From positions 1 to 10,637 of the forward strand of contig NZ_JAEDAM010000071.1 in NCBI RefSeq assembly GCF_018420025.1: a DNA stretch of 10,637 nucleotides, written 5' to 3'. A model generated the notes under the pieces. The model saw only the letters and a list, made by a program, of their open reading frames with translations. It ran no database searches and was not told where the DNA came from. This DNA comes from Candidatus Vampirococcus lugosii. GTDB lineage: Bacteria > Patescibacteriota > Gracilibacteria > Absconditabacterales > Absconditicoccaceae. The position numbers and the translations under genes were made by a program. This document shows, piece by piece, positions 665 to 10,358 of the stretch. Within the stretch, counting starts at the first letter, position 1. Each line of letters starts with the position of its first letter.

Positions 665-3600
665 TTATTTTTTTAATCTTACAACTCATTTCACTCAATC
701 CAAATCAAACTCTTTTTCAATATCAAAATCTAATAACTCCTCTACTATTTCAGATAAAGTTTCATTTTGTATATATTCACCAAAATTATCAATTATTTTT
801 TCTCAATTATCAATTTTTAATTGTATTTTTATTCTATCAGCCACATTATAATCTATTTCTTTTCTTGCTTCTTGAATAATTCTTACAATATCTCTTGCAT
901 ATCATTCATTTTTTAATTCTTTAGTTATATTTAAATCCATAGCTATTACTGTTCCAAAACCTCAATGAACAGATAAATCGGATCATTTAGTTTGATAAGA
1001 AATTTCAAATTCATTTTTTTCCAAAACATAGTCCCCTACTTTTATTTTTCAATCTTGTAATTCCTCAAAATTAGCTTCTTTAGCATTTTTAATAATTTCT
1101 TGTACTGCTTTTCAATATTTTGGTCATATAAGTTTTGCATTTGGCATAGCTATTTTTTTTGCAATTTGAGATATATCATAATTAGTAATTACTTTTTTTA
1201 CATTTAATTCATCTTTAATTATATCTATATAATAATCAGATAAATTTTCTCAAATACTAATACTTGCAAGAGCTTGTCTCACTCTCAAACTATTTTTTGA
1301 TCTAAGTCAAAGTCATAAACTTATAATATTTTGAACTAAATTCATTTCTTCATTAAGATCATAATCAATTAATTTTTCATCAAAAAGTGGAAAATTTTCC
1401 AAATGAACAGATTCTTTATCATTAAGTATTTTATAAATTTTTTCAGCTATAAAAGGACAAAATGGAGCCAATACTTTACTAAATTGAATTAATACATAAT
1501 ATAATGTATCATATGCTTGCATTTTATCATCATCATTTTCTGATTTCCAAAATCTTCTTCTAGATCTACGAATATACCAATTTGTAAGATTTTGTACAAA
1601 ATTAGAAATAGAATTAGTAGATTTTTGTAAATCATAATTTAACATACTTTCATCTACTTCTTTTATTAATTGATTTAATTCAGAAATTATCCATTTATCT
1701 AGTTTATTATAATTTAATTTATGAAAATTAGAATTTGAAATTTCATTTAATATTTCATCAAATTGCCCTTCATAATTATCAATATTTGCATAAGTAGTAA
1801 AGAAATACAAAGTATTCCAAATCGGCAAAAGTAATTTTTTTACAACATCCAAAACTCATTCATCCATAAAATTAATATCTCATCATTTTACTAATGGCGA
1901 ATTCATTACATAAAATCTAATAGCATCTCAACCATATTTCAAAAGCAATTCTTTAGGATCAGTAAAATTACCAAAAGATTTGGACATTTTCCTACCATCA
2001 TTACCAGCTATTATACCAGTAGTAATAACATTTTGATAAGCATTTTGATCAAAAAGTGCTACTCCTACAACATGCATAACATAAAACCAAGCTCTAATTT
2101 GTCATACATATTCTACTATAAAATCAGCAGGATAAGCTTTTTCAAAATATTCTTTATTTTCAAAAGGATAATGAAATTGTGATAAACTCATACTACCACT
2201 TTCCAACCAAACATCAAGAACTTCTGACACTCTTGTCAAAGTATTTCAAGTTTTATGAGATTTCAAATATATTTTATCAAGATTATGTTTATGTAAATCT
2301 AATATTTTATTTGTTTGATCAAAAACATAATCAACAGCAAACATTTTATTTATTCAATATTTTGGATTATTTTCCAAATATAAACCAGAATTATATTTTT
2401 CTGTATCATAATCTATATTGTTTCTAAGAAACATTCTAGACAAAAATACTATATCACCATGAGCACATACAAGAATAGTTTTTCATTTATTGTTTTCTAA
2501 TATTTTTTTCATAAAATTAGAAACTCTTTCATAAACTTCTTTTATTTTTTCTCATCATCAATATCAATTTTCCCATTTATAATTTTTACAAGAAAAAACT
2601 TGATCTTGTAAATTAGGAGAATTAACTTCTATTAATTCATCTATTTTATTTATTTTTAATCAATTAATCTCTGCCAAATCTTGAATAGTATTTACACATC
2701 TATCAAGTGGAGAACTATAACAAGCATCTATATTTATATTTTTAAACTTTTCAAATACTTGTTTTGCTTGTTCTTTTCCAATATCGTTTAAACTTGCTTT
2801 ATTTTTGTAATCCATCAATCATTTTTCATTGTAATCAGTTCTTCAATGTCTTACAAAAATTATTTTTGTTACTTGTCCAAAATCTTTATTTTTTTCATAA
2901 ATTTCTTCCAAACTTCAAATTACAAGTTTTTCATCTTCGTTTTCATCAGTCCACATAGGCATAGGAGTTGCCCAATATCTTTTCCTAGATAAACACCAAT
3001 CAGGTGCAAATTCAATATTTTTTGCAAATCTTCAATTTTTTAAATATTCTGGAAACCAATTAATATTTTGATTTTGTTCCAATAATTTATCTTTCATTCA
3101 TTGAATATCAAAAAACCAAGTATCTTGAGTTCTATAAACTAATGGAACTTGAGTTCTAGGACACACTGCTATTCTATGAGTAATATTTTCTTTTTTGAAT
3201 AATTTTCATTCTTCTTTTAATCTTTGTATAATATCTTGTTGACAATCTTTAATAAATCTACATTGATAATCAGGAATTTGATAAGAATAATTACATTCAT
3301 CATCTATACTTTCTGTTTGATAAAGTCAATTATCTTTTCATAATTGAAAATCTACTTCTCCAAATTCTGGAGCTTGATGACCTATACCAGTTCAATCTGT
3401 ATCTGTAATAAAATTAGCATTATATATTTTGAAATTTTTTTCATCAACTTTTCAAACATAAAAATTGAATAATGGCTGATAACTCAATCATACAAGTTTA
3501 TCTCATTTAAATTCTTGTATAATTTCATATTCTCATTTTCATTTCATCACTTCTTCTACTCTATTTTTGGCAAGTATATACTTTTCGCCTTTCAATTTTC

Positions 3601-4384
3601 AAGTTTCATCTTTCAACTCAATAATAACATAATCACAATCTTCATTTACTGCCAAAGCAAGATTTGCTGGTAAAGTCCAAGGTGTAGTAGTCCAAGCAAG
3701 AACATAAACTCATTCCCATTCTTTTCAATTAATTCAAAGATCAAATTTTACTGTAATAGCTGGATCATTCACTGATTCATAACTATCATCCATAGCTACT
3801 TCAAAATTTGATATAGGAGTTCACAATTTCACACTATATTGAGAAATTCTTTTTCATTTGTAAATAAATCATTTATCATAAAATTGTTTAAAAGTCCACA
3901 TAACAGATTCCATATAATTTTGATTCATAGTTTTGTAAGCATTATCCATATCTACCCATCTACCAATATGGTCAATATACCAATTCCATTCACTACTTAC
4001 TTGTTTAGTATAATTATAACATTCTTCAATAAAATTTTCTATTCAATTTTTTTCTATTTCAGAATTTGAATTAATACCAAGTTTTTTCATTACTTTTTCT
4101 TCAACAGCTATTCAATGACAATCCCAACCCCAAATTCTTTCGCATCTTTTTCATTTCATAGTCCAGTATCTAGGAACTGCATCCTTGATTGCAGAAACTA
4201 ATAAATGTCAATAATGAGGAGTTCCAGTAATAAAAGGAGGTCAATCATAAAATCTATAAGGATTATTTTTTGATCTATTTTCAATTGATTTTTCAAAAAT
4301 ATTATTTTCTTTCCAAAAATTTATAATTTCTTCTTCAAGTTTTGGGAAACTTTGTTTTGGATTTAATTCAGGAAACATTTTCAT
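665..4384 (-). CDS. ileS: Isoleucyl-tRNA synthetase, type 2 (eukaryote-like), 1239 aa, with a nested histidine-phosphatase domain.
   Basis: One frame was checked triplet by triplet from 4384 to 668 and contains no TAA or TAG. The stop TAA is the reverse complement of 665-667. Motifs:
- [17 protein letters not shown] (HIGH region, 4199-4252).
- [17 protein letters not shown] (2949-2999).
- [11 protein letters not shown].
- KMSKS (1976-1990).
- The C-terminal [17 protein letters not shown] block.
The ORF-track entry 1313..1852 is an internal piece. By hand count there are about 51 in-frame TGA codons, several at invariant Gly positions. Trp is encoded by TGG. Confidence 0.95.
2303..2866 (-). 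other. Histidine phosphatase (phosphoglycerate-mutase-like, His_Phos_1-type) domain inserted inside IleRS, approximately residues 507-694.
   Basis: In-frame segment: KIIFVRHGRTDYNEKG...[14 protein letters not shown]...ELIEVN...[41 protein letters not shown]. It carries the family motifs RHGxT (His ~513), SSPLxR, GGE and xHG (His ~642). It is flanked by normal IleRS sequence: ...[13 protein letters not shown] upstream and [12 protein letters not shown]...[14 protein letters not shown] downstream. Confidence 0.8.
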
Positions 4385-4817: not shown

Positions 4818-6527
4818 ATGGAAAATTCAGGTGATTTAGTTGAACAATCAAGTTGACAAGAACAAGAAGTTTTATGAAAATTAAAGTCTGTAATTGTACA
4901 AACATTATGATGAGTTTGAGATGATGAATGAAATAATTTAACATGATCTAGTACTAGAGTAAGAATAAAAAGAATTTGACAAAAAGATTTGGATATATTG
5001 ATAGATTTGGGAATGTATCAATGATGAAACGAAGAAAAAGTTATTCAGTCCAACAAAGAATTACCTGTAAATCCTAATAAAATTGATGCAGTAATTTTAA
5101 CTCATGCCCATCTTGATCATATATGAAGAATACCTATGCTTGTAAATAATTTACAAAGTATATTTAAATGACCTATATATGCTACCAAAGTAACTTCTAT
5201 GTTGACATTGATATCATTACAAGATAGTGCCAAAATTATGAAAGAAAATTTGGAAACAACAGAATCTAGAGCTAGTAGACTTAAATCTTTTTTGAACACT
5301 CAATTATGAGAATTAAATTCTTTTCTTTCTGCTCAAAATAATAGATCAACTAGAAATAGATCAAATTATAGTAAAATTAAAGAAATAAGACAAAAATTTA
5401 CAAAAGAAGAATTGGAACAAAAAATAGAAGAAATAAGAGATTTACTAAAAGAATATTGAGTAGAAAAAAATTCTGATATTGCTAATGTTTATAGATGAAA
5501 ATTAGATAATGCAAAAGATAAACTTTTATACAATGAAGAAGATGTATTAAAAGCTTATTCTCTTATTAAACAAACTGAATTTTATCAAAAAGTGGAAATT
5601 TTACCTTGAGTTAAATTAATGTTTTTTAATGCTTGACATATAATGTGAGCTTGACAAGTTTTTCTTGAAATTGATAAATGAAATTGACAAACATTTAATA
5701 TGTGATTTAGTTGAGATGTTTGAAGATTTTTTGATGAAACTTATATATGAAAACCTGATGTTCCAGACAAAAATTTTGATTTTTATCAAATAGAATCTAC
5801 TTATTGAAATAGAGAACATAGTGATAAACAAATGGAAGATCAAAAAATGATTGATGAAATAAATAAAATAAAAAAAAGATGATGAAAGATTTTGATCCCC
5901 TGTTTTATGATACAGAGAATACAAGATATATCTATCAAATTACTAGAATTAATGGATAAATGAAAAATTCCAAAAATGCAAATATATTATGATTGATTAT
6001 ATACTGAAAAAATAAATAATATATATCGTTTATCTGATAATCCAAATTACAAAAATTTATGAAATAATTTATTAGTACCTATAAATAATGATGAAGTTCC
6101 TAATGAATTTGTAAAAACTAAAAAAACTTGTATTATGCTTGCTCCTTCTGGTATGATGCATTGAGGAAGTATTCAAAAATATATAAAACCTATTCTTGCA
6201 GATAAAAAAAATTCTTTATTTTTTGTTTGATATCAAGCTGAATGAACTAATTGAAGAAAAATTCTTGATTGACTTAGAAGTTTTGATCTTCCTTGAGTTT
6301 GATATGTTGATATAAAATCAGAAATACAAGTTTTTCGTAGTTTTTCTTGACATGGCGACAAAAATGATCTTAGATATTTAATGTTGGAACTTTGATTGAA
6401 GAGAAATTCAAAAGTTTTGGTAAATCATGGTGATCAAGTTGCACAAGAAAAATTAGTAGAAACATTAAAATGAGATTGATTTGATGTTCAATGAGCAAAT
6501 GTTTGAGATATTTATAAACTTTATTAA
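4818..6527 (+). CDS. beta-CASP family metallo-beta-lactamase-fold nuclease/ribonuclease (TTHA0252 / CPSF73-like / RNase J-related), 569 aa.
   Basis: The frame was verified line by line with no TAA or TAG. ATG at 4818 and TAA at 6525-6527. Motifs in order:
- LIDLGMYQG.
- AVILTHAHLDHIGRIP (HxHxDH; the following Gly is TGA at 5124-5126).
- FFNAGHIMGAGQV.
- IESTYGNREH.
- GKILIPCF.
- FSGHGDKNDL.
- VLVNHGD.
By hand count there are about 44 in-frame TGA codons. Confidence 0.9.
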
Positions 6528-6528
6528 T

Positions 6529-6667
6529 ATGGTGGAAACTAATAATTATAATTTAGAAAAATGAGAAACATATCTTGGAAATAATTTTATTGATTTATAC
6601 AAAAGACAAGTTTTATCTTCTTTGTCAGAATGACAATTAGATGATATTATTAAAAATAAAACTATAA
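6529..6667 (+). other. Frame-disrupted 5' region of the downstream hypothetical gene.
   Basis: ATG GTG GAA ACT at 6529-6540 (frame 1) runs straight into TAA at 6541-6543. A protein-like frame-2 stretch at 6542-6661 (NNYNLEKGETYLGNNFIDLYKRQVLSSLSEGQLDDIIKNK) ends at TAA 6665-6667. It would join the long frame-1 ORF if one extra A were present in the run 6653-6661. Confidence 0.4.
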
Positions 6668-6693
6668 TTATAGATTTATATATTAGAAAATAT

Positions 6694-7866
6694 TTGTATT
6701 CATGAAATTGGAAAACTGAAATAAGTTTTTCTCCTATTCAATGACTTCCAGAATGATTAAAAATACAAAATCCTGATGTACTTATACAATTTTGTAAAAT
6801 ACATTGATTTTTTCCTATTATTCAAAATATTTATTTGGATAAAATAGATATTAGCAAAATTAAAGAAATACCTCAATTATTAAATTTATTTATTTGGATG
6901 ATAAAAAATTGAGATATACATTATGCACTTTATTCTGAAATTAGTAAAATAATAGATATACTTGAATGAAATTGACTTAATAATTATGATATTGCTGATT
7001 TTTATTATATTATGTCTGTTTTTGACAATATTAGAACTGTTGGTACTAGAGATATACCACAATCTTTTTGAAGTTGATTACAAAAAAATAGAAATCAATG
7101 AACTTTCTCTGAAAATATTTTTTGTGAAATTGCTTTTAGATTGGAAAATGAACTTAGAAAAGCTCTAGGAATATATTCAACATATTTGAAACTTGCAAGT
7201 ATGAGAGAAGATAATGAAAGAAAAACTGATATGAATATTACAGTAAATAAATGAGAAAACGATTTAGATTCTTACAAAACATACCCTGTACAATTTACTA
7301 TTTCAAATATTGAAGAAAATAAAAAATTAAATAGACAATATAATGTCAATAAAAAAATATTATGAATAGAAAAATGGCTTTTTACAGAAATGTTTAAAAC
7401 TAAAACTAAAATAACACCATTTATAGTTTTATCTGTAAATTGAGATTTTGCAAAAAAATTATCAAAAGGTGAATTTCAAGAACAATATGATAAACGAATT
7501 TCAAATAAAGAATTTAGAGAAAGTCAATCTGATTCCAAATTCCCATTTTTTATAAATATTTTGAAACAAGAAGATTTAGTATGAGCAAAAGTTTGATATG
7601 TAGTTTTGAATATATTTATTTCAAAAATTGATCTTGAAGATCAAAATCTTATGTCTGAAGATATTGAACATAAAATAAAAGAAATATTGGAAAATATGGA
7701 ATGAAAAAAAATATGATGGATATTTTTGGATAAAATTTCTATTAAAATTTCAGAAAAAAAAACAATAAAATCTCCAAATCCTAAACAAAAAATAAATCTT
7801 ACATTTTATGATATAGAATATTCTTACAAAGAAAAAAAATATTGAAATATGAAAATATATATATAA
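6694..7866 (+). CDS. Hypothetical protein with no recognisable family. This is a conservative call from the first canonical start (TTG) in the long open frame. The frame is open from 6661.
   Basis: Frame 1 has no TAA or TAG from 6661 to the TAA at 7864-7866 (402 codons, checked line by line), which is not expected by chance at this AT content. TTG at 6694; the first ATG is at 6898. It contains many in-frame TGA codons. The gene begins one nt after the beta-CASP stop if the disrupted 5' part is included. Sample sequence: ...IHGFFPIIQNIYLDK...VGTRDIPQSFGSGLQKNRNQGTFSENIFCEIAFRLENELRKALG... Confidence 0.6.
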
Positions 7867-7890: not shown

Positions 7891-9195
7891 TTAGTATATT
7901 TTAACTTTTTTGTATTCATCATATAAATATCAATACAATATTCAATAAGTTATGAAAAAAATATAATTTATAATACTATCTTCAAATACATGCAAAAATA
8001 GTCATTCTATCAATAATCAATAAAATCATATAGACAATAATAATAAATATTTTTGTAATTTTTTAGTTTCTTTATTTTTTGAAAATATTCATATTTTTCT
8101 AATTCATAAAAATATAAAAAATATTATTCATATCCAAATAATAAATCATATTGCTCATGAATCAATAAATACTTGCAAATACATATTTTCAGGTAATATT
8201 TCTCATCTGTGATGAATTGCAGGTCATGAAGATCCAAATCAAAGTCCCATACTATTGTTTATTGCAAAAATAATTGCATTTAGTGTCTCAGATATATGTA
8301 ATTTTGTAGATTCAAATTTAACAAAACTTAAAATAGATATTAAAAATAATAAGAGAAATATTCAAATTCATATTATTTTTTTATTTTTCTTTAATTTATA
8401 AGGCAAGAAATACCAAAATTGTATTATTCAAGCAAGTATAAAACCTCTTGAAAATGTAGCAAGTCATCATAATATATATAAACTAGAATATGCAATTGAT
8501 TTTATTGAATTTTTAGTTTTATTTTGTTTTTGTTTCATAAATTCAAAACTTTTACTTACAAAAAAAGATAAAAATAAAACAAGTAAAAATCAATAATTAT
8601 TTGGTCAAGCAAATATTCAATTAAATCTTGCTAGTCAATCAGGTCAAGTACGATAATAAATAGGTGGTTTTTCTCAAAATTTCCAGTCTCAAACAGGTCC
8701 GTATCATAAATATTTTATAAATTCTTCTTTGAATCAAAATTTCATTAACTGCCAAAATATTCAAATAATTAAACTTATAATCAATGAATAAAATATAAAA
8801 TTAATAAATTTTATTATATCTTTTTTATTAACTTTATCTATAAGCACTGTTCATACAAATGTAGAACTTAAAAATATTATCACAAAAAATATATTATATT
8901 TTATTCAAATAAATATATCATATAATCATTTTTGATTAATAAGTGATATTAATATTCACCAAAAAATATAAAACAATAGAAGTATTATAAAATATTTGTA
9001 ATCTATTAAATATTTTTTGAATTTATCAAAGTTAAATATTATTAATAATAATACAAAAAAGAACCAAATAATTTCTTTTAATAAAGAAAAAATTAATTGA
9101 AATTGTCAATCAAAAATTCAATATACAAAAAAAGTATTTAATATATAATAAGAAAAAATAAATATGACAAATAATTTAACAAAATTTATAATCAT
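7891..9195 (-). CDS. O-antigen ligase / O-antigen polymerase family (Wzy_C-like) polytopic membrane protein, 434 aa.
   Basis: ATG is the reverse complement of 9193-9195 and the stop TAA is the reverse complement of 7891-7893. The frame was verified with no TAA or TAG. The protein is highly hydrophobic with many predicted TM segments. Family-typical motifs: LARFNGIFAGPNNYGF, ATFSRGFILAGII, and GLGFGSSGPAIHHRGEILPENMYLQVFIDSGAIGFIIW (compare GxGxG...aHNxyLqxlxexGixG). Confidence 0.75.
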
Positions 9196-9345
9196 TTTTT
9201 AAAATTCATTATAGATTTATACTATTGATATGATAGTTTAAAATCATTACAAAATAAAAATTAATTTCTTAATTAATTAATAGTTTAAAATACTGTTTAT
9301 TTATGATTTTTCAAGAGAATTTAGTTTATTTATAAATAATTAAAT

Positions 9346-9398: not shown

Positions 9399-10358
9399 TT
9401 AATTCAACATACCTTCCAAAAGACTAACAAACTGACTTGATGGATAAGCTCAAGGAACTAAAACCCAATCTCAAGTAGTTGTATCTAGAAGAACATTTCA
9501 TGGAGTTCAAGAAACTCAAAATATTCTTCATTCTGATAAATTATCTTCTATAACTCAAGATACTTCAGCATTATCTATACAAGAATTAAATGCATCAACA
9601 TCAACACCATAAGAAGATACTAAATCATCCCAAGCATCTCTATCATTTTTATTTGATAAAGCAAAAAAGTCTTTTTTGTAATTATAATAAACATCATTAT
9701 CTCATAATTCACCTGCACATTGAAATGCATATGCTCATGGCATAGATTGTTCTCAAAATATAGGAAATGGTCTAAATTTGTAAGACACTTCATTATCTTC
9801 AAACTGAGAAATACTATTTATTACAGTTCAATCATTTGTATGTCTAGCACAATAAACACAATTAGGATCAGTATATTCTAGCCAAACAATTTTTGCATTT
9901 TCATCTCAATATGTAAATCATCTTGAAAGTATATTATCAATTTGATCTTTTGATATAGTTCATCTATCAAATCAATCATCACCAGTAGTAGATTCTGACA
10001 CTTCAGTATCATTATTATCAGTAGTATCAGCAGTATCAGTATTACCTGCAGAACCTCAAAATTGACTTACAAATTGTTCCAATTGTTCTTTTTGTTGTTT
10101 AGCAAATTCTTCAGATGTAAAAGCTTGTTTAGCTATTTCATAATTTTCCATTCAACCAAACTCCAATGCAGCTATTTCTTGCATTTCTTTCTTTATCTCT
10201 TCAGTATTTACAGAACCACTTATATTTTCCAATTTTGTATCTAAAATATAATAATTAGCAGTAACAGTCAAAACTCAAACTATAAATATAGTAACAATAA
10301 TATTCATTACATTAGATAAATTATTTTCGGGTGTATTATTTCCAGATTTGTTAGACAT
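9399..10358 (-). CDS. DsbA-family thiol:disulfide oxidoreductase (thioredoxin fold) with an N-terminal membrane anchor, 319 aa.
   Basis: ATG is the reverse complement of 10356-10358 and the stop TAA is the reverse complement of 9399-9401. The frame was verified. Order of elements:
- N-terminal TM segment VMNIIVTIFIVGVLTVTANYYIL.
- Acidic Thr/Asp-rich linker.
- VWLEYTDPNCVYCARH (CxxC active site).
- IFGVSGTPGNVLLD (cis-Pro loop region typical of DsbA / Thioredoxin_4 proteins). Confidence 0.8.

Follow-up and report, generated by a model that had tools for sequence, protein, structure and literature searches.

A predicted histidine phosphatase domain nested in the isoleucyl-tRNA synthetase of Candidatus Vampirococcus lugosii, and its relatives across the candidate phyla radiation

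Few enzymes are as conserved or as well studied as the aminoacyl-tRNA synthetases (aaRS), and new catalytic domains inside them are rare. Why does the isoleucyl-tRNA synthetase (IleRS) of Candidatus Vampirococcus lugosii, a tiny predatory bacterium, contain about 181 amino acids (aa) that are not IleRS in kind? The gene, ileS, lies on the minus strand at 665-4384 of contig NZ_JAEDAM010000071.1 (assembly GCF_018420025.1), whose 10,637 nucleotides were analysed as a whole and are called the window here. A preliminary description, made from the letters of the window, had read the extra segment as a histidine phosphatase nested in the synthetase. By itself the window is one member of an unrecognised family, and its interest lies in the family-level pattern: a second, apparently active enzyme inside IleRS over a broad, little-understood section of the bacterial tree.

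The ileS frame is unbroken over 1,239 codons, as first described: translation with code 25 meets 51 in-frame TGA codons and a single TAA at the end. All 51 internal stops of the standard reading are thus TGA, and these codons occupy invariant glycines of class I synthetases (in HYGH and WDCHG) as well as the glycine of the RHG motif within the insert, so code 25 (UGA = Gly) is correct for this gene. The product (WP_213349761.1, identical to MBS8122320.1) is labelled 'class I tRNA ligase family protein'. Pfam places tRNA-synt_1 in two stretches around His_Phos_1, followed by Anticodon_1 and DUF5915, and the NCBIfam model ileS (TIGR00392) matches in two stretches flanking the insert with 837 bits, above its cut-off of 621.4.

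Both halves of the host enzyme keep their signature elements. The N-terminal part (aa 1-504; 2873-4384, minus strand) holds the first Rossmann half with HYGH (aa 57-60; 4205-4216), the CP1 editing domain with WTTTPWTLP (aa 231-239), CP2, the CP2-3 linker (aa 462-478) and the start of CP3. The C-terminal part (aa 686-1239; 668-2329, minus strand) begins with the return strand of a CP3 hairpin and continues with the second Rossmann half, including KMSKS (aa 799-803; 1976-1990), and with the C-terminal domains, among them Anticodon_1 (aa 896-1038) and DUF5915 (aa 1054-1236). Because all IleRS signature elements are kept, down to the anticodon-binding domain, the Vampirococcus enzyme should still charge tRNA-Ile, an activity that is predicted here. 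The closest solved IleRS by sequence are those of human, yeast and Candida (E=1e-77 to 1e-80), against only E=1e-27 for type 1, and in a fold ranking based on the model of a fused homologue (P0116, below) 8WND, 8C9D, 7D5C and 1ILE stand above the type-1 structures 8C9F and 1QU2. These comparisons class the host as a type-2/eukaryote-like IleRS.

What lies between the halves is delimited in two ways. A core hidden Markov model of 29 relatives that lack the insert does not cover aa 499-691, and junction comparison with insert-less relatives places the nested histidine phosphatase at aa ~505-685 (~181 aa, +/- 3 aa; 2330-2872, minus strand), so that the extent proposed at the outset (2303-2866, or aa 507-694) was right to within a few residues. 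The expectation that PF00300 would split tRNA-synt_1 there also held: Pfam His_Phos_1 spans aa 508-646 (2447-2863, minus strand) with 104-108.5 bits, above the gathering threshold of 21.7 (E=1e-29 to 4e-31). The length of the insert matches that of a whole free-standing phosphatase (184 aa).

The five motifs listed in the preliminary description are all present in the order given, carrying R512, H513, R562, E586, E612, R620 and H642; with N519 these make up the family residues found in the insert. The RHG motif (2843-2851, minus strand) comprises R512, the predicted phospho-accepting nucleophile H513 and the TGA-encoded G514. It is followed by the second phosphate-binding arginine, R562 in SSPLDRC (2699-2701; kept in 192 of 197 aligned domains), the predicted proton donor E586 in ELIEVN (2627-2629; 180 of 197) and the second catalytic histidine, H642 in VCAHGD (2459-2461; 191 of 197), all on the minus strand. 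Together with R512, H513 and G514, these three align to columns kept in 90-97% of the 197 related domains. The eight family residues are kept in 117-122 of 125 domains from the region of the window's own insertion site in CP3 (site B), in 44-54 of 55 from a second site in the anticodon-binding domain (site E) and in 13 of 13 free-standing proteins.

Structural evidence comes from the fused homologue P0116 (976 aa), whose domain is 40% identical to that of the window. Its AlphaFold2 model, built on a 46-sequence alignment, reaches a mean pLDDT of 86.8 and a pTM of 0.85; the nested domain of this homologue has a pLDDT of 88-97 and a beta/alpha pattern, and the scaffold superposes on solved type-2/eukaryote-like IleRS with TM values up to 0.84 (target-normalised). 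With the Pfam match and the conservation across about 180 nested copies, this confident model bears out the early impression of intact catalytic residues and a functional domain: the nested domain apparently works as an enzyme and is not an insert in decay. It is very improbable that it is instead a catalytically dead structural module with an RNA- or protein-binding surface, or an accidental insertion in decay. The existence of insert-less close relatives, whose IleRS do not need the domain, and the alignment of the His_Phos_1 profile over positions 1-151 of 194 only could be read that way; yet all catalytic residues are still in place, both here and in over 90% of the nested copies, the Pfam-unmatched C-terminal third (YDTEKY...YLENNP...) is specific to the subfamily and kept also in its free-standing proteins, the homologue's fold is predicted confidently, and between the window and its fused relative L010 the domain is more conserved than the host.

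Which kind of histidine phosphatase is it? The best solved relatives are PspA of Hydrogenobacter thermophilus (4IJ5, E=2e-13), a metal-independent phosphoserine phosphatase, and Geobacillus PhoE (1H2E, E=3e-5; also 1EBB); they share the ~200-aa class and the RHG...R...E...H set with the insert, and differ from it in being stand-alone enzymes at ~25-30% identity. CobC and PspA are also the best-scoring named families, yet far under threshold (TIGR03162, 68-73 bits against 162.9; NF045917, 67-73 bits against 350), and because of the latter gap substrate specificity is not transferable from PspA. Taken together, the matches indicate a complete branch-1 histidine phosphatase of the small PhoE/PspA/CobC-like type and not a true phosphoglycerate mutase.

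We rejected the identity with bisphosphoglycerate-dependent phosphoglycerate mutases (dPGMs) because their models (TIGR01258, NF0107xx) give 22-37 bits against cut-offs of 82-421 and match the N-terminal ~65 residues only; true dPGMs of known structure likewise align only to the first ~65 residues of the domain, and the archaeal small dPGM model NF038349 gives 53-57 bits against 225. The dPGMs are ~230-250 aa long, and the domain, at 181 aa, is shorter. That it serves as the organism's phosphoglycerate mutase, catalysing the step from 3-phosphoglycerate to 2-phosphoglycerate in a truncated glycolysis, is accordingly quite improbable, given also that its best solved relatives are phosphatases and that the fusion occurs in many lineages of differing carbon metabolism. 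The idea draws on the membership of the domain in the PGAM superfamily, on the JGI name of the fused protein P0079 ('isoleucyl-tRNA synthetase/bisphosphoglycerate-dependent phosphoglycerate mutase') and on the Vampirococcus genome paper, according to which glycolysis in this organism begins at 3-phosphoglycerate.

Where the domain sits in the synthetase follows from alignment to solved IleRS, which puts the insertion point between yeast residues ~491 and ~497. Yeast CP3 comprises residues 459-526, and the CP2-3 linker 453ARDWNVSRNRYWG465 lines the tRNA-CCA/reveromycin pocket (PMC7955072). This makes CP3 the host element, a surface subdomain that in its turn interrupts the Rossmann fold, and the insertion point lies ~30 residues after the ARDWxxSRxRYWG linker. 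The nesting inside the IleRS frame thus stands as first proposed, but its assignment to the catalytic core does not, since CP3 is not part of the Rossmann core proper. Insert-less Gracilibacteria IleRS read ...YEHNKEYGQI-EEKTVDGV-VKYFYTNTNDEVDIHKH at this site, where the window has its insert, TKIIFVRHG...FAV; from this comparison, the phosphatase replaces the turn of a short beta-hairpin in CP3. The usual linker had been put at 20-40 aa, which fits insert-less Gracilibacteria (~20-30 aa) but not solved eukaryote-like IleRS (~7-10 aa). The flanks lack zinc-knuckle cysteines, as had been noticed.

Could the arrangement stem from a chimeric assembly or from contamination, or could the segment be an intein-like or mobile selfish element that is cut out of the mature protein? 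In favour of such a view, the window is a short contig of a metagenome-derived genome, and one relative (P0097) has an IS200-type transposase domain nested in its IleRS. Runs SRR13241708 and SRR13241709, assembled independently (Logan), give a nucleotide-identical gene including both junctions, which answers the concern over a chimera raised in the preliminary description. TGA encodes 9 of 13 glycines in the insert, that of RHG included, and 42 of 62 in the rest of the gene, and the GC fractions are 0.22 and 0.25; since both values resemble those of the rest of the gene, the insert is native to the code-25 genome. L010, at 64-67% identity, has the same junctions, and so do many other taxa. No Hint/intein family is among the Pfam matches of the window protein, and the junction residues (GQ|VTK ... 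FAV|DY) are without the Cys/Ser/Thr and His-Asn splicing residues. We rejected an intein or mobile element for this lack of intein motifs, and an artefact or selfish insertion of any of these kinds is hardly credible.

One apparent homologue dissolved in the course of these comparisons. Protein P0017, '96% identical' to the window's IleRS, is the same gene: the DNA records L035 and L036 are 100% identical to the window, and the 4% is TGA read as Trp. Public collections hold the V. lugosii gene as a Gly version, a Trp version (P0017, Logan) and two short RefSeq fragments (P0298, WP_275052406.1, 153 aa; P0299, WP_275052408.1, 487 aa). Since one gene is stored in three forms, code-25 genes can pose as separate homologues or look truncated. 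The annotation problem is a general one, as the fusions are named plain IleRS and, in code-25 organisms, are often fragmented or mistranslated.

The phosphatase-in-IleRS fusion is spread over the candidate phyla radiation (CPR) and is not confined to V. lugosii. Protein searches covered sets of 5.8 and 1.8 billion proteins, and a GTDB scan gave 25 loci, nine of them informative CPR loci, with back-translated patterns that miss TGA-encoded Gly. The architecture turned up in many IleRS, and the same domain occupies the site of the window's insert in Gracilibacteria, Saccharibacteria, Peregrinibacteria, Magasanikbacteria, Nomurabacteria and Dojkabacteria. The fusion is confirmed by Pfam in Peregrinibacteria (KKP39778.1), Magasanikbacteria (KKU27225.1) and the Parcubacteria group (MBI2050921.1); those of Saccharibacteria, Nomurabacteria and Dojkabacteria come from the GTDB loci, and fragments add Niyogibacteria, Nealsonbacteria and Paceibacterota. 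Because Saccharibacteria carry the fusion, its role may be testable in cultivable strains; a protein search aimed at cultured Saccharibacteria returned mainly short fragments, with no named cultured strain among the matches.

To see where IleRS accept inserts, we mapped all segments of at least 60 aa left uncovered by the IleRS core model in ~230 IleRS, and five hot-spots emerged. Core position ~220 takes NUDIX domains and, in the SR1 protein that underlies the NCBIfam family 'ileS_w_GNAT', a GNAT domain. At core ~497 (site B, in CP3, the site of the window), 113 of 115 inserts are His_Phos domains, some of them in tandem; core ~515 takes Ser_hydrolase-like domains, and core ~550 takes GNAT, His_Phos and one IS200-type transposase domain. 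His_Phos accounts for 56 of 57 inserts at core ~680 (site E), which is the first loop in the anticodon-binding domain, and many Gracilibacteria have the phosphatase in this domain as well. A second fusion (L002, 47% GC) keeps the MTK start of the phosphatase. The IleRS of L013 (2,165 aa, Gracilibacteria) contains four phosphatase domains.

Several of these enzymes are unusual in their own right. In L013 (7643-14137 of GTDB JANPGO010000063.1, Ca. Gracilibacteria) two phosphatases stand in tandem at CP3, one at core ~590 and one in the anticodon-binding domain; its near-equivalent P0035 (2,143 aa) also has a GNAT domain, and in both giants the inserts more than double the size of the enzyme. The IleRS P0097 / P0300 (1,677 aa, on a 1.49-Mb contig) bears, besides a phosphatase domain, a Y1 transposase (PF01797, E=1.5e-8, aa 772-990) in frame at core ~550, which may be a clue to how cassettes enter ileS or may be a domesticated transposase. 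At site ~220/260, P0269 (aa 257-438) and P0173 (aa 263-423) have inserts of ~170-190 aa without a Pfam match (…KYEFTVKYY…AEIDIY…IVEVEF…) that look CYTH-like by eye; if they are true CYTH domains, a fifth hydrolase family of the ileS neighbourhood described below is also nested in IleRS. The core ~515 inserts of P0041, P0043, P0065 and P0081 (IleRS of 1,249-1,271 aa) have no Pfam match either. They are homologous to a free gene, L001 8882-9460 (BLASTP E=1e-20 to 1e-25), and because that gene is Ser_hydrolase-like they are taken as divergent alpha/beta-hydrolase domains.

How new is this architecture? Sequences that show it have been public since 2015, under no other name than IleRS or 'class I tRNA ligase family protein'. 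We found no description of an aaRS-histidine phosphatase fusion in 7.7 million PubMed Central (PMC) papers or in bioRxiv, in agreement with the preliminary description, which knew of no aaRS with an internal PGAM-type phosphatase; nor is the fusion mentioned in the Vampirococcus genome paper or the AARS Online catalogue. Nested and appended aaRS domains as such are already known, in CP1 and in the GNAT-bearing IleRS, and the histidine phosphatase within an aaRS is new. The closest precedent is NF040702, 'ileS_w_GNAT' (for example SR1 bacterium Aalborg_AAW-1, P0124), from the same host lineage: a type-2 IleRS of code-25 Gracilibacteria/Absconditabacteria in which, on the same principle, a complete small enzyme domain occupies a surface loop of an intact IleRS. 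Its guest is a GNAT domain at core ~220, in the CP1 region, whereas that of the window is a histidine phosphatase in CP3. With 296 bits against a cut-off of 1,999 and no acetyltransferase match in Pfam, the window protein is not a member of that family.

The origin of the domain is best approached through its closest relatives, which are free-standing Gracilibacteria genes of 184-190 aa, co-linear with it over the full length at 47-62% identity. These are genuine genes in their own right, each with a start and a stop codon, annotated 'histidine phosphatase family protein' (P0001, P0003-P0012; at JGI, 'broad specificity phosphatase PhoE') and uncharacterised; they share with the insert the conserved residues and the segment YDTEKY...YLENNP. 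The four informative contigs (L001, L005/L006, L011 and L012) all have an ileS without insert, and 4.2-5.3 kb upstream of it, on the same strand, the free-standing gene. This gene is part of a closely packed array of co-directional genes, with NUDIX, MazG, Ser-hydrolase or GNAT as its companions. The array of L001 reads His_Phos - unknown - NUDIX - MazG - unknown - MazG - Ser_hydrolase - two membrane open reading frames (ORFs) - ileS, and that of L005 His_Phos - NUDIX - MazG - ... - GNAT - ... - ileS. CYTH and HAD genes stand directly upstream of the arrays. The free NUDIX and Ser_hydrolase of L001 are homologous to domains nested at ~220 and ~515 elsewhere (BLASTP E=1e-5 to 1e-33); for GNAT, the link between array and nested domain is one of family assignment only. 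No other gene of the Vampirococcus contig is a phosphohydrolase, so the ileS-linked array is absent from the window.

The wider neighbourhood upstream of ileS (L001 2754-10718; L005 3597-14868) is conserved in these Gracilibacteria and rich in small phosphohydrolases: it comprises HAD, one or two CYTH, His_Phos, NUDIX, one or two MazG, and Ser_hydrolase or GNAT genes, while msrA/msrB are read from the other strand. Several short ORFs without a known function are interspersed, including a conserved 76-aa ORF after CYTH. We also considered the arrays as debris of a duplicated ileS and rejected this: they contain no IleRS-like fragments, and their order (HP-NUDIX-...) differs from the nested order (NUDIX-HP-...).

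Has the phosphatase moved between these two settings? By IleRS core identity the nearest relatives of the window (62-68%) are all insert-less, so IleRS works without the domain. Compared with L010, the domain of the window is 66.7% identical and the host only 46-54%, an outlier among 5,313 pairs of site-B fusions, in which the host is as a rule better conserved than the domain (for hosts that are 50-60% identical, the domain has a mean of 33% and a maximum of 61%). Domain and host divergence are correlated with r=0.26 at site B and r=0.77 at site E, whose domains form a separate, vertically inherited lineage. Neighbour-joining trees unite the window, L010 and all free-standing genes in one clade (bootstrap 96%) and pair the window with L010 (88%); they place this nested pair inside the free-standing genes in 50% and beside them in 43%. 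The trees and identities point to at least one switch, in one direction or the other, between a gene near ileS and a domain inside IleRS within the subfamily. Such cassette switching at site B is a natural experiment on domain insertion into essential enzymes.

What might the domain do for its host? We think it probable, judging from its sequence and its relatives, that it is an autonomous, active phosphomonoesterase tethered to IleRS, doing the same job as its free-standing orthologue, with the fusion providing co-expression and co-localisation. The domain would fold on its own and act by standard two-histidine chemistry: H513 would accept the phosphoryl group to form a phospho-His intermediate, R512, R562 and H642 would hold the phosphate, and E586 would donate the proton as general acid. 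The CPR IleRS would then be a platform whose surface loops take exchangeable small-hydrolase cassettes (His_Phos, NUDIX, Ser-hydrolase, GNAT). Our best guess at the substrate is a small phosphorylated metabolite or nucleotide. This reading does not call for an exact spatial hand-off to the site of aminoacylation or of editing; a fixed geometry to the active site is not required, because the domain occurs at unrelated sites, in tandem, in one to four copies, as a separate gene, and not at all in close relatives. The CP1 editing domain of IleRS, ValRS and LeuRS offers the contrast, being universal, acting on the enzyme's own mis-acylated product and having a defined geometry to the tRNA 3' end, whereas the phosphatase is lineage-specific, dispensable and movable between sites.

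Some observations weigh against this reading. The IleRS sets were retrieved with domain-containing queries, so that the counts above describe a pattern and not a prevalence. The specific NCBIfam models (CobC, PspA, dPGM and PhoE-like) all fall far under their cut-offs and assign no substrate class. The four ileS-linked arrays come from related genomes and amount to one lineage-level observation, and no phosphatase lies within 9 kb of three insert-less ileS genes from another Gracilibacteria clade; a universal ileS linkage was rejected on the strength of these three, and the linkage is instead clade-level. Finally, the association with IleRS is recurrent and apparently exclusive, with at least two sites, operon-like adjacency and phylum-level persistence in the CPR, which fits an indifferent passenger poorly and leaves room for real functional coupling.

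In that other clade, the genes upstream of ileS are an IlvA-like threonine dehydratase with RidA (L037 4127-5721), RidA alone (L039 6565-6939) or an ITP/XTP-type house-cleaning NTPase (PF01931, L038 7457-7999). A conserved ~200-aa ORF of unknown function directly follows ileS in L037, L038 and L039.

Coupling to IleRS chemistry would mean that the phosphatase acts on AMP, on products derived from diadenosine tri- or tetraphosphate (Ap3A/Ap4A), on pAp, on alarmones or on a phosphorylated tRNA end, the tether raising the local substrate concentration. We regard this as rather unlikely, though to be taken seriously. Aminoacyl-tRNA synthetases produce Ap4A in a side reaction, which speaks for it, as do the recurrence of the domain specifically in IleRS, in CP3 and in the anticodon-binding domain, its retention in Saccharibacteria, the Parcubacteria group, Peregrinibacteria and Gracilibacteria, the position of site B ~30 residues past the CP2-3 linker of the tRNA-CCA pocket, and the nature of its partners in the fusions and ileS-proximal arrays, which are nucleotide hydrolases (NUDIX, MazG, CYTH). 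A mechanism of defined geometry is disfavoured, however, by at least two structurally unrelated positions and one to four copies; close IleRS relatives lack the domain, some genomes have it as a separate gene, and the NCBIfam models detect no substrate-specific signature.

The nearest documented parallel is of little help to that idea. Mycobacterial MutT1, the only documented protein found to pair NUDIX and His_Phos, joins an N-terminal NUDIX domain to a C-terminal RHG phosphatase, two guest families that occur together in many IleRS of Gracilibacteria. Its substrates are nucleotides, 8-oxo-(d)GTP and diadenosine polyphosphates, and the activity of its phosphatase domain is described as unknown (MutT1 paper). 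MutT1 does not belong to the aaRS, and its domains follow one another in tandem instead of being nested; the window protein, unlike MutT1, has no NUDIX domain.

A broader form of the idea makes the CPR IleRS the scaffold of a multi-enzyme machine in which the cassettes act on the synthetase's own products or substrates and the window's phosphatase is a working part. We hold this to be unlikely; if it were true, roles may include clearance of Ap(n)A or adenylate-derived nucleotides, inactivation of toxins that mimic aminoacyl-adenylates and healing of phosphorylated tRNA ends. Gene fusion and gene neighbourhood tie IleRS to small hydrolases in minimal, host-dependent bacteria.

A protein phosphatase, for example a SixA-like phosphohistidine phosphatase that regulates IleRS or a partner, would also be compatible with the intact catalytic residues and has precedents in the superfamily, whose members dephosphorylate phospho-His proteins: SixA acts on Ndk (PMC12934123), and MutT1 dephosphorylates sensor histidine kinases (PMC12407098). 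It is nonetheless improbable, as the best sequence relatives, PspA 4IJ5 and PhoE 1H2E, are small-molecule phosphatases, no kinase or phospho-relay partner is seen in the window or the related arrays, and there is no evidence of IleRS phosphorylation.

The contig carries five further genes. An AAA-ATPase_like gene (PF09820; 1-549, minus strand) runs off the contig end, and a beta-CASP metallo-beta-lactamase RNase (4818-6527, plus strand) is divergent from ileS. It is followed by a 460-aa ORF (~6484-7866, plus strand) and a 434-aa ORF (7891-9195, minus strand), both without a Pfam match, the latter looking by eye like a multi-pass membrane protein, and by a gene for a DsbA-like thioredoxin-fold protein (9399-10358, minus strand). 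No tRNA or Rfam matches were found in the window. Its GC minimum, 12.8% at 8751-9250, takes in the 5' end of the gene for the putative membrane protein together with intergenic sequence, which extends to ~9398.

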